A DNA stretch of 64,000 nucleotides from Candidatus Omnitrophota bacterium (GCA_016783605.1 JADHWG010000001.1:4712-68711); one strand, 5' to 3'. Positions 6,701 to 59,757 are shown, numbered from the stretch's first letter. Notes: generated by a model not told the origin, from the sequence alone. Numbers and translations: made by a program.

Positions 6701-8607
6701 TGCGTGCTAAGATCATTCCACCTTAGATCGTATTCTAAAAACGACGCGTATTTGTCCTCTATCGCGCCTATAATATCCGGGGTCTCATTATTCTCCGCGG
6801 CTTCTTTTGTAACATCATCTACCAGTTTTTTAAATTCAGCCTCAAGTAAAGGCTTCAAAATACCGTAATACGCACCGTATTCTTTATGTGTTTTAATGCC
6901 TTCTATCTCATCAATCTTCTGTACCGCGTCGACCTCATGGCTTAAAGCCCACACAGCTTTCATATCTTCATCATTTGTCAGGTTTTTTTTCAACGCTATT
7001 TCATCCGGCGTAACAGGAAAGAAACGTAAACCTCTTTCATGGTATTCCTTGTCCGTCATAAAGTCACCCCAAGGTCCGACGATCCTATATGCGGCTTTTT
7101 GAAATAAATCTCTTTGCGCGCGTATCGCCACAATACCCATATTCAGATAATCCCTTACCTCAGAATGCCCGATAGCAACCAGCATAGGCGCGCCGACAGG
7201 AATATCATCCGGCGTCATATCAGGCGTGACTATTGTGACAGGTCCTATCGGATCCCACTGGTACCAAACTTCGTTATTGAATCCTTTCACGTGGTTAATT
7301 TTCTTATTTTTAAGCCACAGCTCCTCGAGGATTTCTTCAGCGTCATCAGGTTTCTTGCTGATGAGCGTGGCAAATTGCTCTACGGTAAAGGGCGTATGTT
7401 TACCAAATACCTTTGCCATTTCATAATATCCTTCAAGAGATCCATCGTCTACAACAATTGTCTGCGCTATTATCTCTTCATTTCTGCGAAATATGTCCTC
7501 AAATTTCTTTTCCTGTTTTCGGAGCGCGCTTAGCCTTGCCATGATGGGCCGGATATCCGAGCCCTGCTGATTATTTACCCATTCTTCTTCGCTTTTGAAG
7601 CCAAATGCCGCGATCGCGTCAGACGTCAGTGCTATTAAGCCAAGCGCAATTCGCGTATGAATGTCTTCATGCTGTGCTAAAACTATTTTTTCCGATTCTG
7701 TGAGACGGTCATACGATGATTCCCTCATGTAGTAGTATTCCTCCACGCTTTCCAGACTTCCATATTTTTCATACTGTTTTCTTGTCTCTCTGGTACCGGG
7801 ATGGCATTCAATATCACTCGGCGCTCCAGTTGATTCAATGTATTTTTCGTAAAGTTCATCCGGCAAAACGATAAAATATCCACCGGTTGCGTTGTCTCTC
7901 CTGCCATACATTTTCATAAATTCTTCTTGTATTTTGGCCTTACCATTTGTTCTAAAGCTTACACTTATTTGCCTCTTCAGGTCTTCAATTGTAAGCGTGA
8001 TCGCCAGATTTAGCCTACCGTGCTCCTCCCGCGTCAGCGGTTTATTTCGATTCGCTCCGGTTCGGGCATACCACTCACCCGCCGACCGGGTTGGAAGACC
8101 GGCTTTTCCCCTTGCCCTTATTCTAAACTTATCGAATTCAACTTTGACGCGCGTCCTTATTTCATTCGGAATGTTTTCTTTGCCAAGATTTTTTTCATAT
8201 TTTCCTAAAAAATCCGTAAAAATCGTTTCCCAATCTTTGTCGTTTTCTACGAGTTTCATCCATTCGCTGTGCGCTTCTTTTTCGCTCTCAAAGCTAGGTA
8301 TCATCTCTTTTTTCATCCCATCAAGATAGCTCTCTACACATTTCCCGGTTGCTTCTCTGATCTTGTCAAGAACTCCGTCTTTGCTAATATCCTTGAACCA
8401 CTCTTTCAGGTTTTTCTCTACATCTTTGTCGAGTACAATCCTACTCCCAAATCCGAATTTTAAAGCTGTCGAGAGAGTGTCTTGTGTAGATTCCGGAACG
8501 ACAGAAAAACGCTCTGCCGCGAAAGTCGTATTGCTAAAAGAAAAAGCCAAAACTAAAAAAAGGCTTATTGTTTTACAGAACGTTGATTGTTTGAAATTAC
8601 TTTTCAT
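3715..8607 (-). CDS. giant secreted protein (1630 aa), function unknown; contains an HExxH (HEDIH) motif
   Basis: Long uninterrupted ORF with an N-terminal signal peptide (LFLVLAFSFSNTTFA). No family was recognised by eye. It has a single zincin-like HEDIH motif. Confidence 0.7.
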   Translation of the reverse strand: MKSNFKQSTFCKTISLFLVLAFSFSNTTFAAERFSVVPESTQDTLSTALKFGFGSRIVLDKDVEKNLKEWFKDISKDGVLDKIREATGKCVESYLDGMKKEMIPSFESEKEAHSEWMKLVENDKDWETIFTDFLGKYEKNLGKENIPNEIRTRVKVEFDKFRIRARGKAGLPTRSAGEWYARTGANRNKPLTREEHGRLNLAITLTIEDLKRQISVSFRTNGKAKIQEEFMKMYGRRDNATGGYFIVLPDELYEKYIESTGAPSDIECHPGTRETRKQYEKYGSLESVEEYYYMRESSYDRLTESEKIVLAQHEDIHTRIALGLIALTSDAIAAFGFKSEEEWVNNQQGSDIRPIMARLSALRKQEKKFEDIFRRNEEIIAQTIVVDDGSLEGYYEMAKVFGKHTPFTVEQFATLISKKPDDAEEILEELWLKNKKINHVKGFNNEVWYQWDPIGPVTIVTPDMTPDDIPVGAPMLVAIGHSEVRDYLNMGIVAIRAQRDLFQKAAYRIVGPWGDFMTDKEYHERGLRFFPVTPDEIALKKNLTNDEDMKAVWALSHEVDAVQKIDEIEGIKTHKEYGAYYGILKPLLEAEFKKLVDDVTKEAAENNETPDIIGAIEDKYASFLEYDLRWNDLSTQKIIDQQGTIAKTIEVILNNLDEVKRRIIEEISTVYEINYQIKILFENVPIETVLYQFINPYEPVKAIRGASLHEKVAKFRLEKQIPVFLELGVPSEMEITQAENIATLFGYVFKDKDAWKGDWWNNMIEDLREEYRKRLKISYGGGTKADIIEGMVEVAGYNGAFVARYIYTLANAVKLAETAAGVKDGLDLLYNFKANEKGPWMPWIQGYEDAGVDLEKVNIFHCISRLHIDAALRELRGEDVSELFRDATTDEKKKIITIDGREDNIATRGTGSNTGIIPAEFLASAGVTHAVIDPTAVSAPRQIANMEKAGIQAIIPEYEYRSTNVSNLKTKLDDDLAKTIQIISDRKHMPAITPINEVMAVHAEMTANESEPQKAAPLARQKGYYEDVEEPEGIDATITETIKNGAPFYLDLEGDIDACNLESPDAPKTITLSKLKSALKYFPEELLGKDAIRENGIVFPEMGVKELQEKDSVELNILVKSAYRMDRIIMAQSDGKNVLSLGEEPEESTHGLHILAVKTGSATISVTDARGDIKTAKIVSLAKGGFLLVIPASAKSVSVETLEQEAEILDIFVPALKRKIPIAKPFKQGKKIGGTNIVASEERGVIKDYGLKSEEVDVITINGEKKRPPKRITHGGVQRPHRLVVKSGAVEIEINNNNLLVDKDEKIVVFGPGEVIDVNMDIREDGDSIEGRLIIESPDGRKFHFRKPPTVREINDYWIKKTLHSETVIVEASYANTEGEQAVYNVYEMLEKHASLVKKNKIDLIVPKEMFSDSLSGDGSKEKTQRNLDKLFGKGAVKIKEYNSEAGLDQQSVVNLLSSSLSSKSPEDVRIPVLFATESNITAIQPESDFDMPEKLEDILKQTRILSLPDIEGLSGKGWLYASTALRIGILQGCLTPKDVQKAENGEQTLAQDIKKLMRAVTHSQDIDIKDLYLMLSYNEIPTGQRRMLQIGAAVTLMRLVLETLLLGIPMERIDRSDWKDCIDQIDSSL

Positions 8608-9009
8608 TATTATTTTCCCCCTTCGGTTAAAAACACATAATACGCGTGAGATGATCCTGTTGAACTATCACAAAATCTTCCGCCATTATCTTTCTTTTTC
8701 TCGGAATAATGGGTTTGAAAAAATCTTTTTTAAACACCTTAAAATTGTCTTTCAGAAATCCTGTTTGCCTGAATCGGCTTGATCGCTTCGTACTAAGAAT
8801 GGGTTTTTTTGAGGTATACCAAAGCATGCGTTACTTCACTGTTGAGTTTATTCACATCACTACTAAAGCAAAAAACAACTACCTTCTTTCTAAAGTACCA
8901 AAAAGGGCAAAACAAATCAACCCTTTATTTCTAACTTTTTTTCGATAAACATTGAAGTTATAAGGGCACGGCATGCCGTGCCCCTACGAAGTGGTTGGCG
9001 ATATCCCCC

Positions 9010-9078
9010 ATTTAAATAGGGACGTCACCCATTTAATTAAGAGAACAAATTGAAAATGGGTGACGTCCCTATTTAATG
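9010..9078. repeat. long inverted repeat (25-bp arms: atttaaatagggacgtcacccattt / aaatgggtgacgtccctatttaat)
   Basis: Arms separated by ~18 nt. Shares the GGGACGTCACCC core with the hairpins that flank the HEPN/MNT pair. Confidence 0.6.
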
Positions 9079-9092
9079 AATATTCGCGTTTG

Positions 9093-9545
9093 CTAAAGCA
9101 AATCAGGGGTTATTTCCCATAACAGTTTCCATTTTTCTTGGTATTCGAGACAAATTATGCCGGAATGCTTAAAGGTGATGCTTTCATTTTCTTCGTTTTC
9201 GAAGAGCAAGAGGGAGGTGAGTTTTCGTAAAAACGGGAGGTGCCCCACGATCATTATGTCTCTTCTTACGGCTTCCAATTCTTCTTTGATCTTGGCAACT
9301 TCATCATTAGGATTCAGATCAACTCGTTCATTTATCTCCGTTTTTTCGATATATTCAGTGATTATTTGTACGGTTTCGATCGAACGCATCTTTTTACTGT
9401 GCCATATGCTCGCGACACTGATCTTTTCCGCTTTTATGAACCGTCCCATTTTCTGAGTTTCGTCTTTGCCTTCTTCACTTAAGGGTTTTTGAGGATCTTG
9501 CTCCTCCGTCAAAGAAAGCCCGTGTTGGATCAAATAAAGTTTCAT
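9093..9545 (-). CDS. sixA: phosphohistidine phosphatase SixA (histidine phosphatase superfamily)
   Basis: MKLYLIQHG…RHG-type catalytic motif, ~150 aa. I moved the start to the internal Met because the N-terminal extension in the ORF track reads through a repeat. Confidence 0.65.
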   Translation of the reverse strand: MKLYLIQHGLSLTEEQDPQKPLSEEGKDETQKMGRFIKAEKISVASIWHSKKMRSIETVQIITEYIEKTEINERVDLNPNDEVAKIKEELEAVRRDIMIVGHLPFLRKLTSLLLFENEENESITFKHSGIICLEYQEKWKLLWEITPDLL

Positions 9546-9664
9546 ATGTCTACCCCCCTCTTTAATAACGTTAAAAAACTTTCTCTCCCGGAACCACCTC
9601 GTAGGTGGAACCGGTTGTTCCACCTACGAGGTGGTTCCGGTAAAGGGCACGGCATGCCGTGCCC

Positions 9665-10420
9665 CTACGGGGTTGTATCGGGGTTTGGTTCTTCCCCGTC
9701 TTGTTTTGAGTGAACCATTGGAACAAATCTGACCGGCAGGAGTGTTTTTTTATTCACGCCCTCGGGTGTTTTTTCGATCAGACATAATTCTTGATGAAAA
9801 CTTCCGACGGGGACTATCATTTTGCCGCCGATTTTCAGCTGGTCTATCAATTCTTCCGGCACCTCCGGCGGCGCGGCGGTTATAACGATCGCGTCAAAAG
9901 GGGCGTATTCTTCCCAGCCTTTATATCCATCGCCGTATTTTACATGAACGTTGTCATATCCGAGTTTTTTTAGTCTTTCGCGAGCGGAATCGGCAAGCGG
10001 TTTCAATATTTCGACGCTATAGACATCTTTTACGATTTTTCCCAACACCGCCGCCTGATACCCGCATCCGGTCCCGATCTCAAGAACCCGCGTTTGGTCT
10101 TTCGGCTGAATTTGTTCTGTCATATAGGCGACAATGTACGGTTGGGAAATAGTCTGGCCATATCCGATAGGCAGCGGACAATCGCTGTACGCGGAGTTGA
10201 TCAAGTTTTCCGGCACGAACAAATGTCGTTTGACGCTCGACATCGCGTCCAAAACAGTTTTATCGGTAATGCCTCTGGCGACTATCTGTTCTTCCAGCAT
10301 TTTTTCCCTCATCTCATCAAGCGCTCCATTCTCGGCAATGGCAATAAATTCGCCCGCTGTAAAAGATAAAAGCAGACACATTATGCTAAGCAAAAAATTC
10401 ATCCTGATTTTTCGCTTCAT
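9665..10420 (-). CDS. pcm: protein-L-isoaspartate O-methyltransferase with N-terminal signal peptide
   Basis: SAM-binding motif VLEIGTGCGYQAAVL and the PCMT family C-terminal region. I moved the start to MKRKIR because the track start (MHLRGAIG) is a translation of a palindromic repeat. Confidence 0.8.
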   Translation of the reverse strand: MKRKIRMNFLLSIMCLLLSFTAGEFIAIAENGALDEMREKMLEEQIVARGITDKTVLDAMSSVKRHLFVPENLINSAYSDCPLPIGYGQTISQPYIVAYMTEQIQPKDQTRVLEIGTGCGYQAAVLGKIVKDVYSVEILKPLADSARERLKKLGYDNVHVKYGDGYKGWEEYAPFDAIVITAAPPEVPEELIDQLKIGGKMIVPVGSFHQELCLIEKTPEGVNKKTLLPVRFVPMVHSKQDGEEPNPDTTP

Positions 10421-10549
10421 TTTTGCCTGCTCTTTCGTTTCGCCAAAACTTAACAGCCTTTCATCCCAACTCTTCACCACCCCGATTGCACCTCGTAGGT
10501 GCAATCGGTTGCACCTACGAGGTGCAATCGGGGTGGTGCGAAGGTTTTG

Positions 10550-10708
10550 TTAAAACAATGTATATATGAACGGGGCTACTGCTGATGATTCCGTAAAAAT
10601 GATCAATAATCCCAAAAATATGAGGATTACGATAATCGGCAGAAGCCACCATTTTTTTCTCACTTTTAAAAAATCCCACAATTCTTTCATTATTTCCATT
10701 TTTCCCAT
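10550..10708 (-). CDS. DUF5989 / SxtK-like small membrane protein (52 aa)
   Basis: Manual translation in an alternative frame gives MGKMEIMKELWDFLKVRKKWWLLPIIVILIFLGLLIIFTESSAVAPFIYTLF, the hallmark W..FL..RKKWWL.P…APFIYTLF signature of this family. It lies directly downstream of the SxtJ-like gene. The track instead lists an overlapping spurious ORF (10515..10769). Confidence 0.55.
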   Translation of the reverse strand: MGKMEIMKELWDFLKVRKKWWLLPIIVILIFLGLLIIFTESSAVAPFIYTLF

Positions 10709-10741
10709 GAGAATCCCTTTCTATTCTAAACACCCAAACCA

Positions 10742-10800
10742 AAACACCAACCTCGTAGGTTACTACCAACCTACGAGGTTGGTAGTAACCTACGAGGTTG
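10742..10800. repeat. family-B palindrome cluster (three CCTACGAGG units)
   Basis: aacctcgtaggttactaccaacctacgaggttggtagtaacctacgaggttgg. Confidence 0.7.
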
Positions 10801-10818
10801 GTGTTTTGGTTATTTTAC

Positions 10819-11223
10819 CTAAAACTGTTTTGTCAAATTTTCTTTGGACGGTTTTGTTTGTTTTCTCGTTATCCAATAACTTTTCGCGTTTCTATCGAGT
10901 TTCGCGTCCAATATGTCTTTTCCGAAAATGCGCATCACAAGACCTATCGGAGTAAGTATAGCATAATATACTACTGTCAGGATAATTCTGGTATTCACCC
11001 ATCCTATCGCGTGAGCAACTTTTGTAAACACCTTAAAGACCGGTTTAAGTTTCATCGGAAAAAATATTCCGAATATTAGAGAAACCGCCGAAACAGAAAA
11101 AAACCATTTGTACGCGGTTTGATGATGTTTTAAAAAATGGATGGTGCCGAAAACGCACAGGATCATCCCCAAAACTATTCCGAATTGTCTTAGATCTTTT
11201 TTTTGAACTTTTTTCATAAACAT
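10819..11223 (-). CDS. SxtJ-like small membrane protein
   Basis: 134 aa with 3 transmembrane helices and a …VLGWVNTRIILTVVYY…TPIGLVMR… signature, in the typical position after a carbamoyltransferase gene. Confidence 0.55.
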   Translation of the reverse strand: MFMKKVQKKDLRQFGIVLGMILCVFGTIHFLKHHQTAYKWFFSVSAVSLIFGIFFPMKLKPVFKVFTKVAHAIGWVNTRIILTVVYYAILTPIGLVMRIFGKDILDAKLDRNAKSYWITRKQTKPSKENLTKQF

Positions 11224-11234
11224 CCTACCCGCTC

Positions 11235-13064
11235 TTAATCCAGTTCAAATTCCTCAATTTCTTCTATTCTGAGTCGTTCCCGCGGCTGTTTCTTTTTATC
11301 AACAATGAACGAACCCATAACAAGATAATCCATGTTCGTTCTCATAAAACATTTGTACGCGTCACGCGGGGTACAAACTATCGGCTCCCCCCGCACGTTG
11401 AAAGAAGTGTTAATGACCAAAGGAGATGAATGGTTCTCATCCAGCTTCTTCATCATATCATAATATACCGCGTTATCTTCTCGTTTAACCGTTTGAACTC
11501 TCGCCGAATAATCAACATGTGTTATTGCCGGCACGGTGGATCTTTTAATTTTGAGCTTATCAAGACCTTTGAATTCACTTGTTCCTTCATTCGAAATACG
11601 TTGATTTCCCGCAACAGGCGCGACTATCAACATATAGGGACTTCCGCCTTTTAGTTCGAAATATTCTTCCGTTTCTTCTTCGAGAATACTCGGAGCGAAA
11701 GGTCTGAAAGATTCTCTGAATTTTATCTTCCGGTTGATCAATGACTGCATTTCTTGACTTCGCGCGTCGCCCAGAATGCTTCTGGCGCCAAGCGCGCGCG
11801 GACCGAACTCCATTCTGCCTTGAAACCAACCGACAACTTTCTGCTGTGCGATCAACGCCGCGGTCACTTCCGGCAAAACGTCTCGTTCCACTTTTTCGTA
11901 AGGAATATCGTTTTCAGTAAGAAATTTCTCTATTTTTCCATCACTAAATGATGGGCCTAAAAGACTCGCTTTCTGACTATCTTTATTTTCTTCTCGAGGG
12001 CGGCTTCCTTTAAGATATTCACACCACCCGATGAACGCCGCGCCTATCGCGCCGCCGGCGTCTCCGGAAGCCGGTTGTATCCACATGTTCTCAAAAGGTC
12101 CGTCTCTTAGCAACTTTCCGTTTGCCACGCAGTTTAACGCCACACCTCCCGCTAAACATAAATTGCGGAGGTGAGTTTTTTCTTGAACATATTTCGCCAT
12201 GTTCATAATAACTTTTTCAGTAACAACCTGAACGGATCTTGCCAGATCCATGTGTCTTTCGGTTAAATCGCTTTCTTTCTTGCGCGGAGGCGCACCGAAA
12301 AGCTTGTCAAACTTCTTATTGGTCATCGTAAGACCGGTGCAATAATTAAAATACTTCATATTCAGCTTGAAAGACCCGTCTTCTTTCAAGTCTATCAAAT
12401 TGTCCAGGATCTTGTCCACATACTTGGGCTCTCCGTAAGGAGCGAGCCCCATAAGTTTATATTCACCGGAATTAACTTTAAACCCGCAATAATATGTGAA
12501 TGCCGAGTATAAAAGTCCTAAAGAATGCGGGAACCTTATTTCTTCCAAAAGTTCTATGCCGTCGGAGTTACCTTTTCCGAAACTGACAGTTGTCCATTCA
12601 CCGACACCGTCAACCGTCAAAATTGCCGCTTCGTTAAAAGGAGAAGGATAAAACGCGCTTGCCGCGTGAGAATGATGATGTTCCGGAAAAATGATCTCGC
12701 CTTTATATCCCAAAATATCCCGGATATGTTCTTTCATGAAAAGTTTCTGTTTTATCCATGGAGGCATCGCGGATAGAAAGCTTTTTACCCCAAAAGGCGC
12801 GTAAGCTAAATACGTCTCCAATATTCGTTCAAATTTGATAAACGGTTTATCATAAAAAGCGACTATATTGACGTCCTTGATGGAAATACCGGCCTCTTCC
12901 AAACAATATTGTACGGCTCGCTCCGGGAACGACGGATCGTGTTTCTTTCGAGTAAATCTCTCTTCCTGCGCCGCGGCAAGAATTTCTCCGCCGGCGATAA
13001 GCGCCGCCGCGGAATCATGATAAAACGCTGAAATGCCCAATATATACGTCTTTTTTCCGTCCAT
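11235..13064 (-). CDS. NodU/CmcH-family carbamoyltransferase (SxtI-like)
   Basis: 609 aa with an N-terminal Kae1/YrdC-like ASKHA domain (ILGISAFYHDSAAAL), internal HHxSHAASAF, and a C-terminal carbamoyltransferase domain. Confidence 0.85.
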   Translation of the reverse strand: MDGKKTYILGISAFYHDSAAALIAGGEILAAAQEERFTRKKHDPSFPERAVQYCLEEAGISIKDVNIVAFYDKPFIKFERILETYLAYAPFGVKSFLSAMPPWIKQKLFMKEHIRDILGYKGEIIFPEHHHSHAASAFYPSPFNEAAILTVDGVGEWTTVSFGKGNSDGIELLEEIRFPHSLGLLYSAFTYYCGFKVNSGEYKLMGLAPYGEPKYVDKILDNLIDLKEDGSFKLNMKYFNYCTGLTMTNKKFDKLFGAPPRKKESDLTERHMDLARSVQVVTEKVIMNMAKYVQEKTHLRNLCLAGGVALNCVANGKLLRDGPFENMWIQPASGDAGGAIGAAFIGWCEYLKGSRPREENKDSQKASLLGPSFSDGKIEKFLTENDIPYEKVERDVLPEVTAALIAQQKVVGWFQGRMEFGPRALGARSILGDARSQEMQSLINRKIKFRESFRPFAPSILEEETEEYFELKGGSPYMLIVAPVAGNQRISNEGTSEFKGLDKLKIKRSTVPAITHVDYSARVQTVKREDNAVYYDMMKKLDENHSSPLVINTSFNVRGEPIVCTPRDAYKCFMRTNMDYLVMGSFIVDKKKQPRERLRIEEIEEFELD

Positions 13065-13179
13065 ATTTACCGCTAAACCCTTCTTGACCGCCCGTATTTT
13101 GAACTGTATTATATCTTACAACAAACCACAATTACAAGCCTTGTTTTACCTCCCCCAAACACCCCACCCCCTTCGACAA

Positions 13180-13270
13180 CCTCGTAGGGGCACGGCATGC
13201 CGTGCCCTTTACCACACAAATCACAAATCCCATGAGGGCACGGCATGCCGTTCCCCTACGAAGTTGGTGG
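13180..13270. repeat. BIME-like composite (family-B half-site, REP-A, 28-bp linker, REP-A) in the divergent promoter region
   Basis: caacctcgtaggggcacggcatgccgtgccctttaccacacaaatcacaaatcccatgagggcacggcatgccgttcccctacg. Confidence 0.8.
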
Positions 13271-13346
13271 TGATAAGTGACTGGGCAAGTGATTCTGTTA
13301 AATATTCTTGCTTTTCAGGTTCTAAAAATGTAGACTTGTCTCGGAC

Positions 13347-15005
13347 ATGCATATGAATCTCATAAAATACACTCTAAAATTATTGCGAATTCGGGCAAAC
13401 GCGTTTGAGAAAAACACCAAAGATCCCATTAAAGCGCAGAAAAGGGTTCTTCTGGAGTTTCTTTCTCGTAACCGCAAAACAGAATATGGCTCAAAATATG
13501 GGTTTGGCAACATAAGATCCATCGATGAATACCGGCGGCGCGTTCCTCTAACCGATTATGAAAAACTTCGCCCTCTTGTGGAAAGAATAGCAAAAGGGGA
13601 ACACAACATTCTGACAAAAGACGATCCGGTTTTTTTCAGCATCACAAGCGGCTCGACCGGAAAACCAAAACTCGTTCCCGTAACAAAATATTCCAAAACA
13701 AAAAACGCCCGCGTCATAAACTTGTCAGCGTATTATGTCACACATGATCACCCGAATATTGTTACGGGAAAAATACTCGCGATAGTAAGCCCTGAAATCA
13801 GCGGATATACCCCCTCCGGCATACCTTACGGCGCTGAAAGCGGACATGCTTATAAAAATCTTCCGGGCGCTATAAAAGGTGCTTATTCTCTCCCGTATGA
13901 AGTTTTCGAGATAGACGATTATGACGCGCGTTATTACACCATACTTCGCGTCTCAATGGAACACGATATAACGATCATCGCCACTATGACCCCAAGCACA
14001 ATAATTCTTCTTTGCCAACTGATAGAAAAAGTGCGGGATGACGTTATTGAGGACATTCGAAACGGAACCATTAAAAAAAGCTTAAAGATATCGCCTCCTC
14101 TCAGAAAAGCTTTGGAAAATCAGTTTAAACCCAATTCGAAAAGAGCGAATGAACTTACAAAAATCTTAAAAGAAAAAGGTTCGCTTCTGCCGAAACATTT
14201 CTGGGGCAATCTTCAAGTGATAGAATGCTGGAAACGCGGTTCAATGGAGTTATATCTAAAAAAATTTCCAAAATATTTTGGAAACGTAGCAATCCGCGAC
14301 TTCGGATATTTTTCCAGCGAAATGCGTAGTTCCGTTCCCATGAAAGATGAAGGCGCCGAAGGCGTTTTGGCTATTACGACCAATTTTTACGAATTTATTC
14401 CCCGGGAAGATAAAAACAAAGAAGAAAAAAGAGTGCTTTTATGTAATCAACTGGAGAAGGGGCAGGAATATTTCATCGTGCTCACAACGCCCGGCGGATT
14501 ATGCCGATATAACATCGACGACATGATAAAAGTTACAGGTTTTTTTAATAAAACTCCCATAATCGAGTTTGTTCAGAAAGGAACCAGCGTCACTTCCGCG
14601 GTCGGTGAAAAACTCTATGAATCTCAAATAGTCGAAGCTGTAAAAATCGCGACCGCTAGATTAAATGTGCCGCTTGAACTTTTTGTAGCGGTCGTGGAAT
14701 GGGCGGATTCCGCGCGATACGCTTTTCTAGTGGAATTTATTGAAGACGCAACACAGGAAAAGAAAAAAGAACTTCTGCTCGCTATCGAAAAAGAACTTTG
14801 CCGATTAAATGAGGAATACGATTTTAATAGAACTTCCCAAGAACTAGCGCATCCTGTTTTAAAAGTGCTCGCCCGCGGCAGTTTTGAAAAATTCAGAACG
14901 ACAAAAATAAAAGAAGGCGCCCACGACAGCCATTTCAAACTCCCGCAACTAACTTCAGATCAAACTTTTCAGAAAAATTTCGATATTATTGAAGAAATCG
15001 ATTAG
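13347..15005 (+). CDS. GH3-family adenylate-forming acyl-acid amido synthetase-like protein
   Basis: 552 aa with an SGSTGKPKLVPVT AMP-binding-like motif and the family N-terminal region. Divergently transcribed from the carbamoyltransferase operon. Confidence 0.7.
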   Translation: MHMNLIKYTLKLLRIRANAFEKNTKDPIKAQKRVLLEFLSRNRKTEYGSKYGFGNIRSIDEYRRRVPLTDYEKLRPLVERIAKGEHNILTKDDPVFFSITSGSTGKPKLVPVTKYSKTKNARVINLSAYYVTHDHPNIVTGKILAIVSPEISGYTPSGIPYGAESGHAYKNLPGAIKGAYSLPYEVFEIDDYDARYYTILRVSMEHDITIIATMTPSTIILLCQLIEKVRDDVIEDIRNGTIKKSLKISPPLRKALENQFKPNSKRANELTKILKEKGSLLPKHFWGNLQVIECWKRGSMELYLKKFPKYFGNVAIRDFGYFSSEMRSSVPMKDEGAEGVLAITTNFYEFIPREDKNKEEKRVLLCNQLEKGQEYFIVLTTPGGLCRYNIDDMIKVTGFFNKTPIIEFVQKGTSVTSAVGEKLYESQIVEAVKIATARLNVPLELFVAVVEWADSARYAFLVEFIEDATQEKKKELLLAIEKELCRLNEEYDFNRTSQELAHPVLKVLARGSFEKFRTTKIKEGAHDSHFKLPQLTSDQTFQKNFDIIEEID

Positions 15006-15065
15006 GAACAATTTCTTATTGATTGGAAATCCCCCCAACCCCCTTTTCCAAATGTGGAGAGAAAA

Positions 15066-16070
15066 TTAGAGGGAGCCGGGATCTCTACCCCCTTCTTGCT
15101 CCGTCAAAACTTTTATGAGCTCCAGATTCGTATTCTCATTTACCCTCGCTATATCAGATGCTGGACATCCTTTCGCCGAATACTCTTTCGGATGATTAAA
15201 TTTGGATACAATATTTTTTATCGCTCCTTGAACAAAACTTTCGGAATAATCTCCCGCGACATCAACGCCGACCACTTCTAATTCATGTCTTATAACCCTT
15301 AGCATTGAAAGCAGATCATCCAAAGGAATAGCCCCTTCCGCCCAATTGGTAAGAGAGTCTTTTCTTTGCAGACAATCTTTGTCAATGGACACATAAACGC
15401 GTTTCGTTGGAAAAGATTTAAACACGCCGCGCAAAAATTCCGTTAAATTTTTCTCTTTCAGTTCATCCCAGTAAATTTTAGTGAAAATTCCATGCGGTTC
15501 GGTTTTTATCGACTTGTTCCGCGGAATTTTTCTGAAAAACACTTTGGAAGGGCACTGCCGCCAAGGATATATTTCCACTCTGTCATTTTCGAGAGCAGAA
15601 TAATTTCCCATTTGCGTAGAAAAACCGATCGCGCTTCCGGAACTCGCCCCAAGCAAAAGAACTTTCTTAACAAGACCGTTTTTAAGTGTTTCCGTAACCC
15701 ACGACCCACAGCAAAGTTTTCCGGGAAACACACTCCAATCCGGGTGCTGGTCGATATTAATAACGGTTACGGGCTCTGAGATAGAGTCTATTAAAATACT
15801 GCTCACATGATGAAAATCCCCCGACCCCAGAAAAGTGATCCCTCCATTCGAAAAACCATTAACACGCACGGCAATTTCCTTTTTAGTTTCCTCGTCCATC
15901 CAAAACCGAGCGCGCGGCGCGATATCTCTTAGATCCACAACCTCCGCGTCATACTCTGCGAGAAGCTTTCTCTGCTGGATGAGACTATCGTCAAAATTTA
16001 AAACCCGTATCTTTTCGCTAATAGAGACACTCCCTGAAATCAATTTAAAATAAAAAAAAACTACAATCAA
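15066..16070 (-). CDS. arginase/deacetylase-fold (ureohydrolase-like) protein
   Basis: Motifs resembling the arginase-family metal-binding triad: GSGDFHH, INIDQHPD, VSIDKDCL. Confidence 0.4.
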   Translation of the reverse strand: MIVVFFYFKLISGSVSISEKIRVLNFDDSLIQQRKLLAEYDAEVVDLRDIAPRARFWMDEETKKEIAVRVNGFSNGGITFLGSGDFHHVSSILIDSISEPVTVINIDQHPDWSVFPGKLCCGSWVTETLKNGLVKKVLLLGASSGSAIGFSTQMGNYSALENDRVEIYPWRQCPSKVFFRKIPRNKSIKTEPHGIFTKIYWDELKEKNLTEFLRGVFKSFPTKRVYVSIDKDCLQRKDSLTNWAEGAIPLDDLLSMLRVIRHELEVVGVDVAGDYSESFVQGAIKNIVSKFNHPKEYSAKGCPASDIARVNENTNLELIKVLTEQEGGRDPGSL

Positions 16071-16522
16071 ATATAGTCCGGAGAACTATACTTTGTAAAA
16101 AGCCCTTTATCACTGTCAATGTATCTCTTTACCCGGATATGTCTGGGAGCAATCGCGGTAGTCAGCCATTTCCAGGCTTTCTCGATCTCTTCCGGTTTAA
16201 AATACAATGTCGGACCTTCACCAAAAACTGACTCAATAAGAATTTCATTCATAACTTTTGTCCATGAATGCGCGCCGACAATCGCAATTAGTTCTATATC
16301 TTTCATATGTTTTTTTAGAAACTTAAAAATTTTCCATTCTGATTTAATATTCGCACCCGTCATTTTAGTGGAATCAACCAAAAGCCTAAGCTTATTATTC
16401 GCACCTTCAATCGCCGTTTCCAGTTCCGGAATAAACGCTTCAATCTCTTTAGCAGTAAGTTTTCCTTCAATTGCCATCCCAAAAACACTCGTGTGTTCGT
16501 GCTTGATTTTTTGTATAGACAT
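16067..16522 (-). CDS. SpoIIAA/STAS-like small protein
   Basis: 151 aa; weak resemblance to the STAS fold; overlaps the downstream gene by 4 nt. Confidence 0.35.
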   Translation of the reverse strand: MSIQKIKHEHTSVFGMAIEGKLTAKEIEAFIPELETAIEGANNKLRLLVDSTKMTGANIKSEWKIFKFLKKHMKDIELIAIVGAHSWTKVMNEILIESVFGEGPTLYFKPEEIEKAWKWLTTAIAPRHIRVKRYIDSDKGLFTKYSSPDYI

Positions 16523-16707: not shown

Positions 16708-16795
16708 TGGCGGAGGAAATAGGATTCGAACCTATGGATCATTGCTGATCAACGGTTTTCAAGACCGCCGCATTAAACCGCTCTGCCATTCCTCC
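16708..16795 (-). tRNA. tRNA-Ser (anticodon UGA), long variable arm, CCA encoded
   Basis: Minus-strand cloverleaf: acceptor stem GGAGGAA/UUCCUCC, anticodon arm GGTCTTGAAAACC, 17-nt variable arm, T-arm GGTTCGAATCC. Confidence 0.85.
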
Positions 16796-16828: not shown

Positions 16829-17533
16829 TCAAACTTTGGGGGTATTTACAAATTCTAATATTTTTGTGTATATTCCGTTATAGATCTCGAAAGAATTCGC
16901 TGTAGCGGATTTTATAAAGGCTACAAATGAAAGATCTGAAAAAAACGGGCAAAAAACTGCCATTACGACTATGAGGTTGCCTATGAGGATAAGAACTAAT
17001 GAAAAAATAATTCCCGATTTTCCAACATCCGATTGTCTTAATCTTAAGGCGTCTGACGTCATAACAAAGTGAAAAGCCAGTGTAATTCCGACCAGAAAAA
17101 CAAAAATGGCGGACATGAACGGCGGGGTTTTATCAAGTGTTTTAAGGATCCAAAAAATCGGACCCAAAAGAAGTGTATACACAGGTACAAAATAGGGACT
17201 GAGTTCTATGAAGAAATTGGTCTTGGAGGTAACTACGCTTCCGCCTCTCGGAGTTACGTTAAACTCGACAACGGTTCCTCCTGAAAGCCAGGTTGCTAAA
17301 ACATGCGTAAATTCATGTCCGAGAACATAAAGGTATACAGGTTTGGCGACAAATATATGAAAAAGAAGATATAAGAGAACTCCCCTTTCAAACAGATGGA
17401 ACAGGTTGCTGTCTAACCCCATATCCATGATCGCGCCATAAAAAGCTTTTGCCGTTCCGATTGCCACGGGCAGTAGAATAATGCCTAATATTGTTTTTAT
17501 AATTCTTGAAAACATACTTTTTATATATCTCAT
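16829..17533 (-). CDS. peptidase M50B-like membrane metalloprotease-like protein
   Basis: Multi-TM protein with an HExxH motif in a YVLGHEFTHVLATWLSGG context. Confidence 0.5.
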   Translation of the reverse strand: MRYIKSMFSRIIKTILGIILLPVAIGTAKAFYGAIMDMGLDSNLFHLFERGVLLYLLFHIFVAKPVYLYVLGHEFTHVLATWLSGGTVVEFNVTPRGGSVVTSKTNFFIELSPYFVPVYTLLLGPIFWILKTLDKTPPFMSAIFVFLVGITLAFHFVMTSDALRLRQSDVGKSGIIFSLVLILIGNLIVVMAVFCPFFSDLSFVAFIKSATANSFEIYNGIYTKILEFVNTPKV

Positions 17534-17546
17534 ACCCCAATTGCAC

Positions 17547-18860
17547 CTACGAGGTGCAATTGGGGTATGAGTTGGAATTGTGGTTTGGGGTGATTTTATC
17601 AGCGCCGAAATATGGTTTTAATGCTTCGGGGATTGTAATTGAACCATCTTTTGTTTGATAAATTTCAAGGAGTGCCACTACAAGCCTTGGAAGCGCCACA
17701 CCGGACGCATTTAGTGTGTGTACATATTTTGGTTTTTGTTTTTTGTTTTTCGATTGATATTTTATATTCGCGCGGCGCGCCTGAAAATCTGAAAAAACTG
17801 AACAGCTTGATACTTCCAGCCATCTTTTGCTTCCCGGCGCCCAAAGTTCTATATCATAACATTTGTGCGCGGCAAAACTTATGTCGCTTGTGCAAAGTTC
17901 GAGTACGCGATATGGAAGATCCATTTTTTTTAGGATGTCTTCCGCGTTCCGGAGCAAAGTTTCCAGTTCTTTCATTGATTCATCGGGATGAGTGAACTTG
18001 ACCATTTCAACTTTATCGAATTGGTGTACGCGAATGAGTCCCCGCGTATCTTTACCGTAGGAACCGGCTTCTCTTCTAAAACACGCGGTTGACGCGGTAT
18101 AGTAGATGGGAAGCGATTCCTCTTTTATCACCTCATCCGCGTGAAGATTGGTAAGAGGGACTTCCGCCGTCGGGATAAGGAAAAGATCCTCTTCTTGGAT
18201 CTTATACATGTCTTCGGCAAGCTTTGGAAGTTGTCCGGTTCCCCTCATGCTCTTACTATTGGCTAACACTGGGGGACAAATCTCTTTATATCCGTGCTCT
18301 TTCACGTGCACGTCTATCATAAAGTTTATAAGCGCTCTCTCAAGTTTGGCTCCGGCGCCGACAAAAAGCGGGAATCCGGATCCTGTTATCTTTGCCGCGC
18401 GTTCAAAATCCAAGATCCCGTTTATCTTTCCAAGTTCAATGTGATCGCGAGGAGTAAACGATATTTTGGGGATCTTTCCCCATTCTCTTACCTTTTTATT
18501 GTCTTTTTCACTTTTCCCGACGGGCACGCTTTCATGCGGCACATTCGGGATCATATCAACAATCGTTTTAAATTTCTTTTCCACCTCGCCGAGCGTGTTA
18601 TCCAATTTGCTTATTTTTTCAGAAATTTTGTTAACTTTTTCTTTGGCGCCTTCGGCGTCTTTTTTTTGTTTTATCAATTCACCGATCTTTTTTGAGGCTT
18701 CGTTTTTTTTGCGTTTTAAGGCCTCGACTTCTTGAAGCAAATCTCTTCTGATTTGGTCAACTTTTAAAAATTTATCCACCAGTTCAGGTTTATCCGATCT
18801 ATTCTTAAGCGCTTTTTTTACAATATCGGAGTTTTCTCTTATGAATTTTGCCTCAAGCAT
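17547..18860 (-). CDS. serS: seryl-tRNA synthetase
   Basis: N-terminal coiled-coil arm plus class II aaRS core (437 aa). The last ~13 codons and the stop are supplied by a family-B palindromic repeat. Confidence 0.9.
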   Translation of the reverse strand: MLEAKFIRENSDIVKKALKNRSDKPELVDKFLKVDQIRRDLLQEVEALKRKKNEASKKIGELIKQKKDAEGAKEKVNKISEKISKLDNTLGEVEKKFKTIVDMIPNVPHESVPVGKSEKDNKKVREWGKIPKISFTPRDHIELGKINGILDFERAAKITGSGFPLFVGAGAKLERALINFMIDVHVKEHGYKEICPPVLANSKSMRGTGQLPKLAEDMYKIQEEDLFLIPTAEVPLTNLHADEVIKEESLPIYYTASTACFRREAGSYGKDTRGLIRVHQFDKVEMVKFTHPDESMKELETLLRNAEDILKKMDLPYRVLELCTSDISFAAHKCYDIELWAPGSKRWLEVSSCSVFSDFQARRANIKYQSKNKKQKPKYVHTLNASGVALPRLVVALLEIYQTKDGSITIPEALKPYFGADKITPNHNSNSYPNCTS

Positions 18861-18937: not shown

Positions 18938-19899
18938 CTACCCCTTAATAACGCCTATTGGACGCATTTTTGCGACTTTTTTTGATAGTCCGGCGTTTTG
19001 GACTATATCTACCACATTCGTTACGTCTTTATACGCGTCTGACGCTTCTTCTCCAAGCGTATCTCGACCTGTATATCGTACAATAATGCCCTTATCGGCG
19101 AGTTCTCGAACGATGGAACGCCCTCGTGTGATCTTTTTGGCCAATGTACGCGACATCAATCTTCCCGCGCCGTGACATGTGGAATTAAACGTCTCTCGCG
19201 CCTCTTTTGTTCCGCTTAAAAGATAGGAACACGTGCCCATATCTCCCGGAATTATTACGGGCTGACCCGTTCGTCTATATTTTACCGGCAGGTCTTTGTG
19301 TCCCGGACCTAACGCGCGTGTGGCTCCCTTACGATGAACGCATAACGCGCGTAATTTGCCTTTAATTTCATAATTTTCTATTTTTCCGATATTATGCGCC
19401 ACATCATAAACCAAATGTAGACCTAAAGATTCAGCACTCGCGCCAAACACTTCTTCAAAAACTCCGCGTGTTAAATGCATTATCACTTGCCGGTTACACC
19501 ACGCGTAATTCGCCGCCGCGCGCATGGCGCCGAGATACGCTTCGCCTTCTTCGCTTTTAACCGGCACGCACGCGAGTTGACGATCCGGCATGTTTATTCC
19601 GAATTTTGACATCAGTTTTATCATGCTTGCCGCGTAATCACCGCACACTTGGTGTCCGAATCCTCTGGAGCCTGTATGTATCATTACCGTAATTTGTCCT
19701 TTTCTATACCGAATATTTTTGCTTCTTTTTCGCTGTAAATTTCATCCACCACCTGCACTTCAAGAAAATGGTTGCCCGAACCTAACGTCCCGGACTGTTT
19801 TTGTCCGCGCTGACGCGCGCGGAGCAACATCTTTTTCAAAAAGATCCGTCCGCATAAACCTTACGCCGCAATTTGATACTACAAAATTGTTAGCGATAA
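18938..19899 (-). pseudogene. rtcB: rtcB RNA ligase, disrupted: -1 frameshift in an A-run plus loss of the N-terminal ~120+ aa
   Basis: The C-terminal 248-aa ORF carries MIHTGSRGFGHQ…HGAGR. An upstream different frame carries [19 protein letters not shown]…FGIEK and terminates where the C-frame begins ([10 protein letters not shown]). Only ~90 bp, all of it repeat, separates this from the archease stop. Confidence 0.6.
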
Positions 19900-19992: not shown

Positions 19993-20412
19993 TTATACGT
20001 CGAAAACTATGGCGACCTCATATCCCATAATGGTTTCTTTTATTACTACGTCGTGGTACGTCGCGGCCTTTATTCCCAATTTTATCCTGTCATCTTCTTC
20101 TATCATTTGTCCCTTTACGTCCGCGATGAGTTTATTGTTGTATAAACTTACGATATTGAACTCATAGAACAGTACACTTTTTTTATATCCCGCGTACAAA
20201 ACTTCATTAAGCCACGCGATAAGAAGACTTTCCGTATCGGAAGCTTCCACTTCTATTCTTTGTGTGTTTGTACACACCAATCCATTAAGATCCGCCATCA
20301 AATCAAACATCGCGTATGCCGCGTTCTCAAAAAGTTTCGGTAAATTGTTTCCTCGAATTAAAGCGGCAACATCAGCGGTATGCGGGATTTGTTTGTAGTT
20401 TTTCATGACCAC
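19993..20412 (-). CDS. archease (RtcB cofactor)
   Basis: 139 aa with the N-terminal HTADVA motif typical of archease. Confidence 0.75.
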   Translation of the reverse strand: MVMKNYKQIPHTADVAALIRGNNLPKLFENAAYAMFDLMADLNGLVCTNTQRIEVEASDTESLLIAWLNEVLYAGYKKSVLFYEFNIVSLYNNKLIADVKGQMIEEDDRIKLGIKAATYHDVVIKETIMGYEVAIVFDV

Positions 20413-58917: not shown

Positions 58918-59757
58918 TTATCCAATCCGTTTTTTCTCTTCGTCAAGCTCTTTTAACGCTTCCGTTAACTCTTCTTTTTTCGGCGCGATACCGTGCCACT
59001 GGGCTTTGTTCTCTATGAACGATACGCCTTTTCCTTTTGTCGTATTCGCGATCAAAATTGATGGAGCACCTTTCGCTTTTCGCGCGTCAGAAAATCCTTT
59101 TCTCAGTTCTTCAAAATCATGCCCGTCGACTTCCGTCACGTGCCATCCGAAACTTTTCCATTTGCCGCAATATTCTCCCAGATCCATCACGTCGCAGCAG
59201 AATCCGTCTATTTGAAGTTTGTTAAAATCAATTATCCCGCACAAGTTATCAAGTTTGTAATGCGCCGCCGTCATCGCCGCTTCCCAAACTTGGCCTTCAT
59301 TGGTTTCTCCGTCTCCCATTAAACAATAAACGCGGGAATCCACATTGTCCATTTTGTCCGCGATCGCCATTCCGAGGGCTACCGAAAGCCCCTGCCCCAA
59401 AGATCCGCTCGATATTTCCACTCCGGGAAGACCGAATTGCGGATGGCCCTGAAGGCGCGACCCTAACTGTCTCAAAGTCCCGAGCTCCTCTTTTTGAAAA
59501 AAACCTTTCTCGGCCAATACCGCGTATAGTGCCGGACATCCATGTCCTTTTGAAAGAATAAATTTGTCGCGGTTTCTTTCTTTCCAATTTTCCGGAGTAA
59601 TGTCCATCTCTTCGAAATATAAAGCCACCAAAATTTCCACTATCGATAACGACCCGCCCGTATGCCCGCTTCCGGCTTTTGACAGCATCGTCAATACATC
59701 CCGCCTTATTTCTATCGCTTTCTCCTTCAGTTCGCCCGTCGTGATCTTTTCTTTCAT
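58918..59757 (-). CDS. transketolase, N-terminal (TPP-binding) subunit
   Basis: GSGHTGGSLS and GDGE…NEG TPP motifs. I moved the start to MKEKITT because the K-rich track N-terminus is unlikely. Confidence 0.85.
   Translation of the reverse strand: MKEKITTGELKEKAIEIRRDVLTMLSKAGSGHTGGSLSIVEILVALYFEEMDITPENWKERNRDKFILSKGHGCPALYAVLAEKGFFQKEELGTLRQLGSRLQGHPQFGLPGVEISSGSLGQGLSVALGMAIADKMDNVDSRVYCLMGDGETNEGQVWEAAMTAAHYKLDNLCGIIDFNKLQIDGFCCDVMDLGEYCGKWKSFGWHVTEVDGHDFEELRKGFSDARKAKGAPSILIANTTKGKGVSFIENKAQWHGIAPKKEELTEALKELDEEKKRIG

Follow-up and report, generated by a model that had tools for sequence, protein, structure and literature searches.

A conserved carbamoyltransferase-SxtJ-DUF5989 gene trio and its GH3 and arginase-fold neighbours in a Candidatus Omnitrophota genome

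We have analysed a 64-kb stretch of DNA from a metagenome-assembled genome of Candidatus Omnitrophota (referred to here as the window, with coordinates counted from its start), and in particular a trio of adjacent minus-strand genes within it. The first gene of the trio encodes a carbamoyltransferase (CT) of the NodU/CmcH/TobZ family (11235..13064, 609 aa); it is followed by genes for an SxtJ-family small membrane protein (10819..11223, 134 aa) and a DUF5989/SxtK-type single-pass membrane protein (10550..10708, 52 aa). On the other side of CT, across a divergent spacer (13065..13346), lies a plus-strand gene for a GH3-family acyl-acid amido synthetase, an adenylating enzyme (13347..15005, 552 aa). 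Convergent with GH3 is the minus-strand gene of an arginase-fold protein, probably a divergent ureohydrolase (15066..16070, 334 aa), and beside it on the same strand is a gene for a SpoIIAA-like/STAS-SEC14 domain protein (16067..16522, 151 aa), here called STAS. An earlier note on this DNA had named these six families, and profile searches upheld every one of the assignments. GenBank holds proteins that are 100% identical to the GH3 and CT open reading frames (ORFs) under those family names, the CT entry being a 'carbamoyltransferase' from Candidatus Omnitrophica.

CT matched both Pfam domains of its family over essentially their whole length (Carbam_trans_N, E 3.2e-105, positions 2-345 of 346; Carbam_trans_C, E 2.3e-71, positions 1-170 of 170), and its closest solved structures, matched at full length, were 7xb6, NovN, GdmN and TobZ (E 7e-91 to 1e-75). 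Among 26 CT homologues we observed invariance of H129, H133, D152 and D335, which form the HxxxH/Asp/Asp pattern of the Kae1-like domain, of the motifs KFRESFRPFAP and NTSFNVRGEP in the YrdC-like domain, and of the C-domain residues K448, R450, R454, N552, S554, N556 and R558; the invariant residues align with those of 7xb6. From the TobZ literature, we take the HxxxH motif and the two Asp residues to bind metal, and the basic and Ser-Asn motifs of the C-domain to bind carbamoyl phosphate and ATP. By analogy with TobZ, CT is expected to convert carbamoyl phosphate and ATP into carbamoyl-AMP, with which it would carbamoylate a hydroxyl group. No hydrophobic or transmembrane segment was predicted in CT. 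At its C-terminus, past the end of the 7xb6 alignment, the subfamily has an acidic extension that is conserved (EEVxEFELD), and the best 120 database relatives of the window protein were 65-92% identical to it.

The SxtJ gene begins 11 nt past the CT stop codon, and its product matched Pfam PF19588 with E 5.6e-14 (53.1 bits, relative to a cutoff of 24.4); its homologues carry the NCBI name 'SxtJ family membrane protein'. In an alignment of 65 sequences, F14 and P92 were invariant, and T91, I93, G94, D103 and Y116 were nearly so. The AlphaFold model (mean predicted local distance difference test, pLDDT, 86) contains three hydrophobic helices, at residues 8-31, 37-54 and 56-99, followed by a basic C-terminal tail which is modelled with low confidence and is conserved as GKDxL...SYW...QF-COOH. 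A Foldseek comparison of the model with the PDB returned no structural relative, the best E-value being 4.9. Our literature search encountered SxtJ in saxitoxin or suomilide contexts only, without functional data, and NCBIfam contained no model that matched SxtJ, DUF5989, STAS or the OlsI-type hydrolase discussed below. One related contig, L174, has an SxtJ gene (4859-5074) that is called as 71 aa, without a Pfam match, and with intact CT and DUF5989 genes on either side; the short form may reflect a disruption, or else an error of assembly.

The 52-aa ORF was described in the earlier note as having been missed, which was true of the ORF track then at hand but not of GenBank, where it is already annotated as MBL7072156.1, 'hypothetical protein'; gene callers also find it in relatives. 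Like the 134-aa SxtJ ORF, it scored above the gathering score of the Pfam family proposed for it, in this case PF19451 (E 6.5e-26, 90.6 bits relative to a cutoff of 27), and a Shine-Dalgarno-like sequence, AAGGGA, was found 5 nt upstream of its ATG. The motif KVRKKWW, which precedes the single predicted hydrophobic helix, and the C-terminal APFIYTLF are conserved across 63 homologues, and comparisons with four orthologues gave synonymous to non-synonymous codon changes of 22:9, 12:4, 24:12 and 22:17. By these sequence criteria, the ORF looks like a real gene. We found no paper that mentions DUF5989. The gap between the SxtJ and DUF5989 genes, which is only ~10-20 nt in relatives, is occupied in the window by an inserted palindrome resembling repetitive extragenic palindromic (REP) elements (10737..10811), with 36-nt arms that are 100% complementary. 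As mRNA, this palindrome has a predicted folding energy of -70.3 kcal/mol (z-score -11.4); it is terminator-like, with a U-rich tail, and was flagged by a terminator scan. Because of the stable hairpin and the U-rich stretch, expression of DUF5989 may be attenuated or uncoupled in this genome.

To survey the trio elsewhere, we ran a pattern scan over GTDB, with each species represented by a single genome; at least 600 loci were obtained, and the best 80 were analysed. In these loci CT is 58-66% identical to the CT of the window, and the hosts belong to more than 15 phyla. They include Omnitrophota, Planctomycetota, Ignavibacteria/Melioribacter, Bacteroidota, Gemmatimonadota, Acidobacteriota, KSB1 and Nitrospirota, and also Eisenbacteria, Myxococcota, Bdellovibrionota, Thermodesulfobacteriota, Verrucomicrobiota, Bacillota and the small genomes of Parcubacteria/Paceibacterota. 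At least 900 nt of sequence were available downstream of CT in 72 of the 80 loci, and at least 2.5 kb upstream in 62. Where there was downstream room, SxtJ followed CT in 70/72 loci and DUF5989 was present in 55/72. Three distant SxtJ homologues (30-36% identity) also have CT as an adjacent gene (3/3), in one case in the order SxtJ-CT. A variant order was seen in one metagenomic lineage, at 6843-9368 of L169/L170, where a 37-aa ORF (called in L169 only) is followed by a 125-aa SxtJ and a longer, 655-aa CT. Moreover, there are natural in-frame fusions of the CT C-terminus to the SxtJ N-terminus, in P0208 (743 aa) and in L057 (1888..3912). These fusions are the strongest evidence we have both that CT and SxtJ form one physical unit and that the N-terminus of SxtJ is cytoplasmic. 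Judged by sequence and gene order, the trio is a tightly conserved, self-contained module, and the trio of the window is a further instance of a module that is known, already annotated and functionally uncharacterised. This agrees with the earlier description of it as an SxtI/J/K-type module that is widespread outside toxin producers and has no assigned function.

Turning to the genes on the other side of the spacer, GH3 matched the N, M and C domains of its Pfam family (E 2e-79, 7e-23 and 6e-16, respectively), and residues 18-536 matched JAR1 in the PDB (E 1e-40); the protein resembles JAR1 and the indole-3-acetic acid-amido synthetases. A search returned 794 proteins at E <= 1e-10, and among the Omnitrophota matches listed identities ranged from 54 to 89%; GH3 is a conserved Omnitrophota gene. 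Against the NCBIfam equivalog model for OlsH (NF052613), the window protein scored 116.7 bits, where the cutoff is 620, and it is therefore not an OlsH orthologue. OlsH is a GH3-like lyso-ornithine-lipid synthetase, from Singulisphaera, that makes N-acyl-ornithine lipid in planctomycetes (PMC12493201). The commonest neighbours of GH3 in other Omnitrophota are a Hydrolase_4 alpha/beta-hydrolase, immediately upstream in 19 loci, an enolase-superfamily MR_MLE protein (13), a short-chain dehydrogenase/reductase (SDR; 12), a C45 acyltransferase (10) and a GNAT protein (8). GH3 there ends a compact, same-strand operon in the order SDR, nitroreductase (not always present), alpha/beta-hydrolase, MR_MLE, GH3, as seen at 6431-11665 of L165 and in L141, L094, L105, L153 and L130. 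The pairing of GH3 with an alpha/beta-hydrolase recalls OlsH/OlsI, and so suggests an N-acyl-amino-acid or aminolipid role; by this analogy, GH3 is probably an N-acyl-amino-acid or aminolipid-type ligase, and the operon of the other Omnitrophota may be an undescribed pathway that combines OlsH/OlsI-like aminolipid enzymes with an N-acyl-amino-acid-racemase-like enzyme. In the window, no alpha/beta-hydrolase gene adjoins GH3; the nearest is 10 kb off, and its product is 29% identical to the operon type.

The arginase-fold protein itself matched Pfam Arginase weakly (26.3 bits relative to a cutoff of 22), and 52 of 53 sampled members of its family, which comprises ~650 clusters at E <= 1e-10, match the same model. 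A profile of the family retrieved from the PDB only arginase, agmatinase, formiminoglutamase and guanidino-acid hydrolases (E 1e-8). All six ligand positions of the binuclear metal site are kept: D107, H109, D111 and D230 do not vary within the family, and the other two, H87 and D232, show conservation of at least 90%. The AlphaFold model (pLDDT 91.6; predicted template modelling score 0.91) gave Foldseek matches of which the top 50 were all ureohydrolases, with TM-scores of 0.47-0.57. Taken together, the sequence and the model indicate a divergent ureohydrolase that is probably active. The alternative of a deacetylase of the histone deacetylase (HDAC) type, which the earlier note had left open, is not borne out, since no HDAC appeared in the Pfam results, the PDB-profile results or the top 50 fold matches. 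Orthologues begin ~5 residues before the sequence IRVLNFDD, and the first ~20 residues of the window protein model poorly, so that its start is probably downstream of the TTG at 16070; the TTG at 16043 is one candidate. In L002, the arginase-fold gene (6696-7625) directly follows lgt and lspA, which are lipoprotein maturation genes. STAS matched Pfam PF11964 (SpoIIAA-like, E 1.7e-21), and the public entry is MBL7072161.1, 'STAS/SEC14 domain-containing protein'. The stop codon of STAS and the nominal start of the arginase-fold gene overlap, and the two genes are therefore probably co-transcribed.

The earlier note had proposed that the trio, GH3 and the arginase-fold protein serve a joint carbamoylation/amide-conjugation pathway. 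In its most explicit form, this reading would have GH3 form an amide conjugate (an N-acyl amino acid or an aminolipid, for instance), the ureohydrolase trim it, and the trio O-carbamoylate it at the membrane. Several observations are in keeping with it: the divergent CT-GH3 order is seen again, the arginase-fold gene being downstream, in the related contigs L005, L090, L091, L173 and L174 (five in all), the trio is membrane-associated, and a membrane substrate is conceivable, since OlsH makes N-acyl-ornithine lipid (PMC12493201). However, the surveys from both sides speak against a joint pathway. GH3, the arginase-fold gene and STAS were near the trio in none of the 80 trio loci surveyed, whose hosts span more than 15 phyla. 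From the GH3 side, we surveyed 80 metagenomic Omnitrophota GH3 loci, 40 of them with at least 2.5 kb upstream, and found the trio in three: L090 (GH3 80% identical), L091 (78%) and L165 (51%). The trio was absent from three long contigs with GH3 orthologues at 73%, 62% and 56% identity, and in L001 (GH3 73%) and L092 (67%) the arginase-fold neighbour is kept and the trio is not. Thus, with the exception of L165, the trio stands beside GH3 only where GH3 is at least 74% identical. We rejected L165 as an independent recurrence, because four unrelated genes (HEAT-repeat, pilin-like, unannotated and Big_7) lie between GH3 and the trio, and because GH3 there ends an operon of its own that comprises all five genes named above, nitroreductase included. 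That GH3 in other Omnitrophota sits in a different operon also argues against the joint pathway.

The full block, in the order STAS, arginase-fold gene, GH3, then divergently CT, SxtJ, DUF5989, protein-L-isoaspartate O-methyltransferase (PCMT) and SixA, was found only in the window and in L005, L173 and L174, and partially in L090 and L091. The spacer between CT and GH3 is not conserved within this group, its length being ~230 bp in L091, ~600 bp in L005 and ~2.2 kb in L090, and its content varying too. The arginase-fold gene is near GH3 where GH3 is at least 62% identical, being adjacent and convergent in L001, L092 and L096; in L095, as in L002/L097/L098, it is 2-3 kb upstream. In 70 more distant GH3 loci it was never nearby. 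A block confined to the nearest relatives is what shared ancestry alone would produce, and the adjacencies of GH3 to the trio and to the arginase-fold gene look like inherited synteny rather than functional coupling. We regard a single pathway for the three sets of genes as quite improbable, and the GH3/arginase-fold cluster of the window should not be annotated as a pathway; in practical terms, the outcome for the window is negative.

The closest relative of the window, L173 (GH3 89% identical), shows a variation of its own in this region (6039-14219): AAA_16 ATPase and Fic genes fill the interval from GH3 to STAS, which is an insertion hotspot, and genes for RloB, an AAA_15 ATPase and a DUF4143 protein lie on the far side of STAS. 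At the expected position of the arginase-fold gene, L173 has a 270-aa ORF without a recorded Pfam match.

If GH3 and its neighbours are set aside, the genes that the trio does travel with become of interest. We clustered the neighbours of 82 trio loci, and scored the 136 immediately flanking ORFs by Pfam. The most recurrent neighbours over the 82 loci were two GDSL/SGNH groups, followed by UDP-glucose dehydrogenase, DegT aminotransferase, glycosyltransferases of families GT2 and GT4, B12-radical-SAM proteins, Wzt-like ABC proteins, asparagine synthase, Wzy_C (O-antigen ligase) and GT9. The top families among the flanking ORFs were Lipase_GDSL_2 (16/136) and Glycos_transf_2 (12/136), and the remainder were scattered. 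With a family hidden Markov model (HMM), an SGNH partner was detected in 39/82 loci, mostly directly adjacent to the trio. An N-terminal hydrophobic segment is present in 26 of 28 SGNH partners, which suggests that they are exported or membrane-anchored, and one representative gave a weak match to the AlgX-type SGNH domain. Individual loci are similar in character: the trio of L006 is inside a cluster of NDP-sugar, DegT and GT2 genes, beside LptD; that of L172 is in an exopolysaccharide-type cluster, between Bac_transf, polysaccharide deacetylase and UDP-glucose dehydrogenase genes; and L171 has the order CT-SxtJ-DUF5989-GDSL. This context points, only moderately, to an envelope glycan or glycolipid as acceptor. 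A search of the literature for gene clusters of polysaccharide O-carbamoyltransferases returned only the GdmN paper.

The frequency of the SGNH partner raises the possibility of an O-carbamoylation relay across the membrane, in which CT would activate the carbamoyl group inside, SxtJ and SxtK would pass it on, and the SGNH protein would finally donate it to a polymer on the outer side, much as in the O-acetylation systems that pair an MBOAT or AT3 protein with an SGNH protein. The usual adjacency of the partner, its hydrophobic N-terminus and the weak AlgX-type match would all fit such a relay, as would the I-J-K-L gene order that is common to the sxt and suomilide clusters. Yet about half of the trio loci, as well as the window, are without an SGNH partner; TobZ-type enzymes carbamoylate their acceptor directly; and four short helices in which nothing polar or catalytic is conserved within the membrane beyond the TPIG motif would make a poor conduit for group transfer. 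Also, SxtL has been proposed to be a decarbamoylase, not a transferase (PMC2679770). We consider the relay unlikely.

The same neighbour data bear on whether the trio could be a tailoring step of a secondary-metabolite pathway for a toxin or antibiotic, as it is in saxitoxin synthesis. SxtI/J/K is the founding example of the module, sxtJ/K/L-like genes occur in the suomilide cluster, and the closest solved structures to CT, NovN, GdmN and TobZ, are antibiotic-tailoring enzymes. Against this, GDSL and GT2, and not polyketide synthase (PKS) or non-ribosomal peptide synthetase genes, dominate the flanks of the 80 loci, and the module occurs in more than 15 phyla, down to the small-genome Parcubacteria/Paceibacterota. 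There are no biosynthetic core genes near the trio of the window, where the other sxt genes (amidinotransferase, PKS-like SxtA and oxygenases) were likewise not found. We judge a role of the trio in secondary metabolism to be highly improbable.

The explanation that we favour, and hold with a fair degree of confidence, is that two functionally independent modules lie side by side through lineage-specific synteny, and that the trio is a membrane-tethered O-carbamoyltransferase acting on an envelope acceptor. By homology, CT would be cytoplasmic, its YrdC-like C-domain making carbamoyl-AMP and its Kae1-like N-domain carbamoylating the acceptor hydroxyl. SxtJ, with three helices, and DUF5989/SxtK, with one, would be its obligate small membrane partners, and would anchor the soluble enzyme to the cytoplasmic membrane on its inner side. 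In favour of such tethering are the lack of a predicted transmembrane segment in CT, next to the hydrophobic helices of both partners, the acidic extension of CT and the conserved basic tail of SxtJ. The acceptor would itself be membrane-bound, most probably a lipid-linked or nascent envelope glycan or glycolipid; we name an envelope glycan or glycolipid as the most likely acceptor with lower confidence than we attach to the overall picture. In many genomes an exported GDSL/SGNH protein, in the position of sxtL, joins the module. The second module would consist of the GH3 amide synthetase, whose substrate we infer from its relatives, convergent to the STAS-ureohydrolase gene pair. BamA, GlmU and an MsbA-like ABC exporter are encoded elsewhere in the window, and the presence of BamA and the MsbA-like transporter implies a host with an outer membrane and with machinery for envelope export.

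A number of observations weigh against this explanation of the trio. We know of no identified acceptor for this CT subfamily, and one would not expect enzymes that act on variable O-antigen sugars to be 58-66% identical across phyla. More than 100 of the 136 flanking ORFs are unrelated to glycans; in the window, the trio is among housekeeping genes, without glycan genes nearby, and no SGNH partner was found in the 64 kb, the single HMM match (59754-61289) being a TPR protein. With respect to topology, three helices and an N-terminus inside would place the basic C-terminal tail of SxtJ outside, contrary to the positive-inside rule. SxtJ occurs without a detectable DUF5989 in 15/72 loci, even when six-frame HMM searches are included, from which it follows that the third gene is dispensable, or replaced, in some lineages; L009, L041, L046, L051, L060 and L080 are examples, and several are Bryobacterales. 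In this genome, the SxtJ/DUF5989 hairpin may uncouple expression of DUF5989 from that of its partners. Finally, in the only case that has been studied, SxtI, the acceptor is a small soluble alkaloid, saxitoxin (PMC2679770).

A bolder version of the membrane-tethered O-carbamoyltransferase would be that CT-SxtJ-SxtK, usually with an exported SGNH protein, constitutes a dedicated and undescribed machinery, spread over more than 15 phyla, for the O-carbamoylation of an envelope polymer or lipid. The small proteins would then have a part beyond anchoring, such as substrate presentation or a relay of the group across the membrane; this we think doubtful. In a narrower form of that idea, the module may have been recruited in this Omnitrophota clade to modify the GH3 product.

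The palindrome between SxtJ and DUF5989 is one of a family. The 9-mer core CCTCGTAGG occurs in 24 copies in the window (852-58685), where 0.16 would be expected, and REP-like hairpins, which are long, near-perfect palindromes around this core, were located in five of the gaps between genes from 9.5 to 17.6 kb, the majority of those present there (9583-9645, 10475-10538, 10737-10811, 13177-13266 and 17529-17571). Their arms are up to 36 nt long and 100% complementary, each arm containing a nested mini-hairpin, CACCT-CGT-AGGTG; the CCTCGTAGG core is common to the arms, the flanks differ, and no defined mosaic order of the kind known from E. coli emerged. The earlier note described the divergent spacer as filled with repeats like bacterial interspersed mosaic elements (BIMEs). 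REP-like repeats are indeed present, and 'BIME-like' is a fair description of them, but the spacer is not filled: it contains one inverted pair (13177-13208/13235-13266) and two promoter-like hexamer pairs. Promoter-like sites are not in excess there, since 6 were counted relative to 6.3 in shuffled sequence. The REP-like family is window-wide and is not specific to the divergent promoter. The palindrome just downstream of DUF5989 (10475..10538; 30-nt arms, 100% complementary) extends over the TTG at which the PCMT ORF nominally starts, and PCMT therefore probably starts at an ATG near 10420; the PCMT orthologue of L005 is 239 aa long.

PCMT and the SixA-like phosphohistidine phosphatase, identified by Pfam and NCBIfam, are encoded on the minus strand downstream of the trio (9093..10504). 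The same PCMT-SixA order is found in L005 and L174, and PCMT is near the trio in 1 of the 80 genome loci; the two genes are part of the clade-specific synteny block and not of the trio. Together with GH3, the ureohydrolase and STAS, the flanks of the trio in the window comprise PCMT, SixA, tRNA-Ser, seryl-tRNA synthetase and RtcB. The tRNA-Ser gene (anticodon TGA; 16708-16795, minus strand) lies between the STAS gene and a gene for an M50B-like membrane protein, and the seryl-tRNA synthetase gene (17547-18860) is two genes from it; an Rfam scan of the window found three tRNAs and nothing else. The RtcB ORF (18938-19839, minus strand, 248 aa), beside an archease gene (19993-20412), spans no more of the Pfam model than positions 184-426. 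It is split from a 51-aa upstream fragment by a frameshift of one base within a run of A (GAAAAGG), and translation continued in the other frame yields canonical sequence. There is no space ahead of the archease gene for the N-terminal third or so of the protein, and REP copies are present in the gap. The RtcB gene of the window looks damaged, either as a pseudogene or through an assembly error. Further downstream of the trio, a 1630-aa minus-strand ORF (3715-8607) begins with a signal-like segment, and among Pfam families gave a marginal TIM match and none that was significant; ORFs of 2550 aa and 2742 aa are found at nearby positions in the relatives L001 and L005.

The trio is among the more conserved bacterial gene modules of unknown function, with CT sequences that keep ~60% identity between Omnitrophota and Acidobacteriota, Planctomycetota or Parcubacteria, and the only published clue to it had been its presence in toxin clusters. 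The new leads are that SxtJ is essentially always beside this CT subfamily and is occasionally fused to it, and that exported SGNH proteins and glycan genes are its main recurrent neighbours. What novelty remains is in the function of the module and in its recurrent exported SGNH partner, and not in this particular locus.

The proposed arrangement has parallels in well-known systems. The O-acetylation systems PatA/PatB, AlgI/AlgJ/AlgX and OatA pair activation in the cytoplasm with a membrane component, either small or integral, and with an SGNH protein that is exported; the DPM1-DPM2-DPM3 complex has two tiny membrane proteins that keep its soluble catalytic subunit at the membrane. The likeness of the trio to these systems is one of analogy only, with no relationship in sequence or fold. 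Of the second module, the GH3 of the window is like OlsH in being a bacterial GH3 adenylating enzyme, and in 19 other Omnitrophota loci the gene arrangement recalls the olsH-olsI pair. The arginase-fold protein shares its fold and six metal-ligand positions with the ureohydrolase superfamily (arginase, agmatinase, guanidino-acid hydrolases and proclavaminate amidinohydrolase). Yet at 10-16% identity to the solved ureohydrolases, and with a TM-score of ~0.5, it falls in a separate family that has no characterised member.

The sxtI-J-K genes of the saxitoxin cluster have the same order and Pfam families as the trio, and closely similar lengths: sxtI is 1839 bp, sxtJ 405 bp and sxtK 165 bp, relative to 1830, 405 and 159 bp in the window (PMC2679770). 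In that cluster the order continues to sxtL, which encodes a GDSL lipase, and J and K are listed as 'unknown' (PMC2679770); sxtJ/K/L-like genes are likewise clustered in the suomilide gene cluster, where J and K are again listed as 'unknown' (PMC10157211). The window differs from the saxitoxin cluster in lacking both the remaining sxt genes and a GDSL (sxtL) partner, and in that its host is a non-photosynthetic member of the Omnitrophota; decarbamoyl-saxitoxin cannot be the acceptor of its CT. The closest counterparts of CT with solved structures are TobZ, GdmN, NovN and 7xb6, with which it shares the Kae1-like and YrdC-like domains, the HxxxH/D/D metal motif and the carbamoyl-phosphate/ATP motifs. 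Whereas these enzymes are stand-alone, soluble and act on antibiotics, the CT subfamily has two obligate small membrane partners and, at its C-terminus, an additional acidic tail that is conserved; its sequence has also changed far less than theirs, with ~60% identity across phyla.

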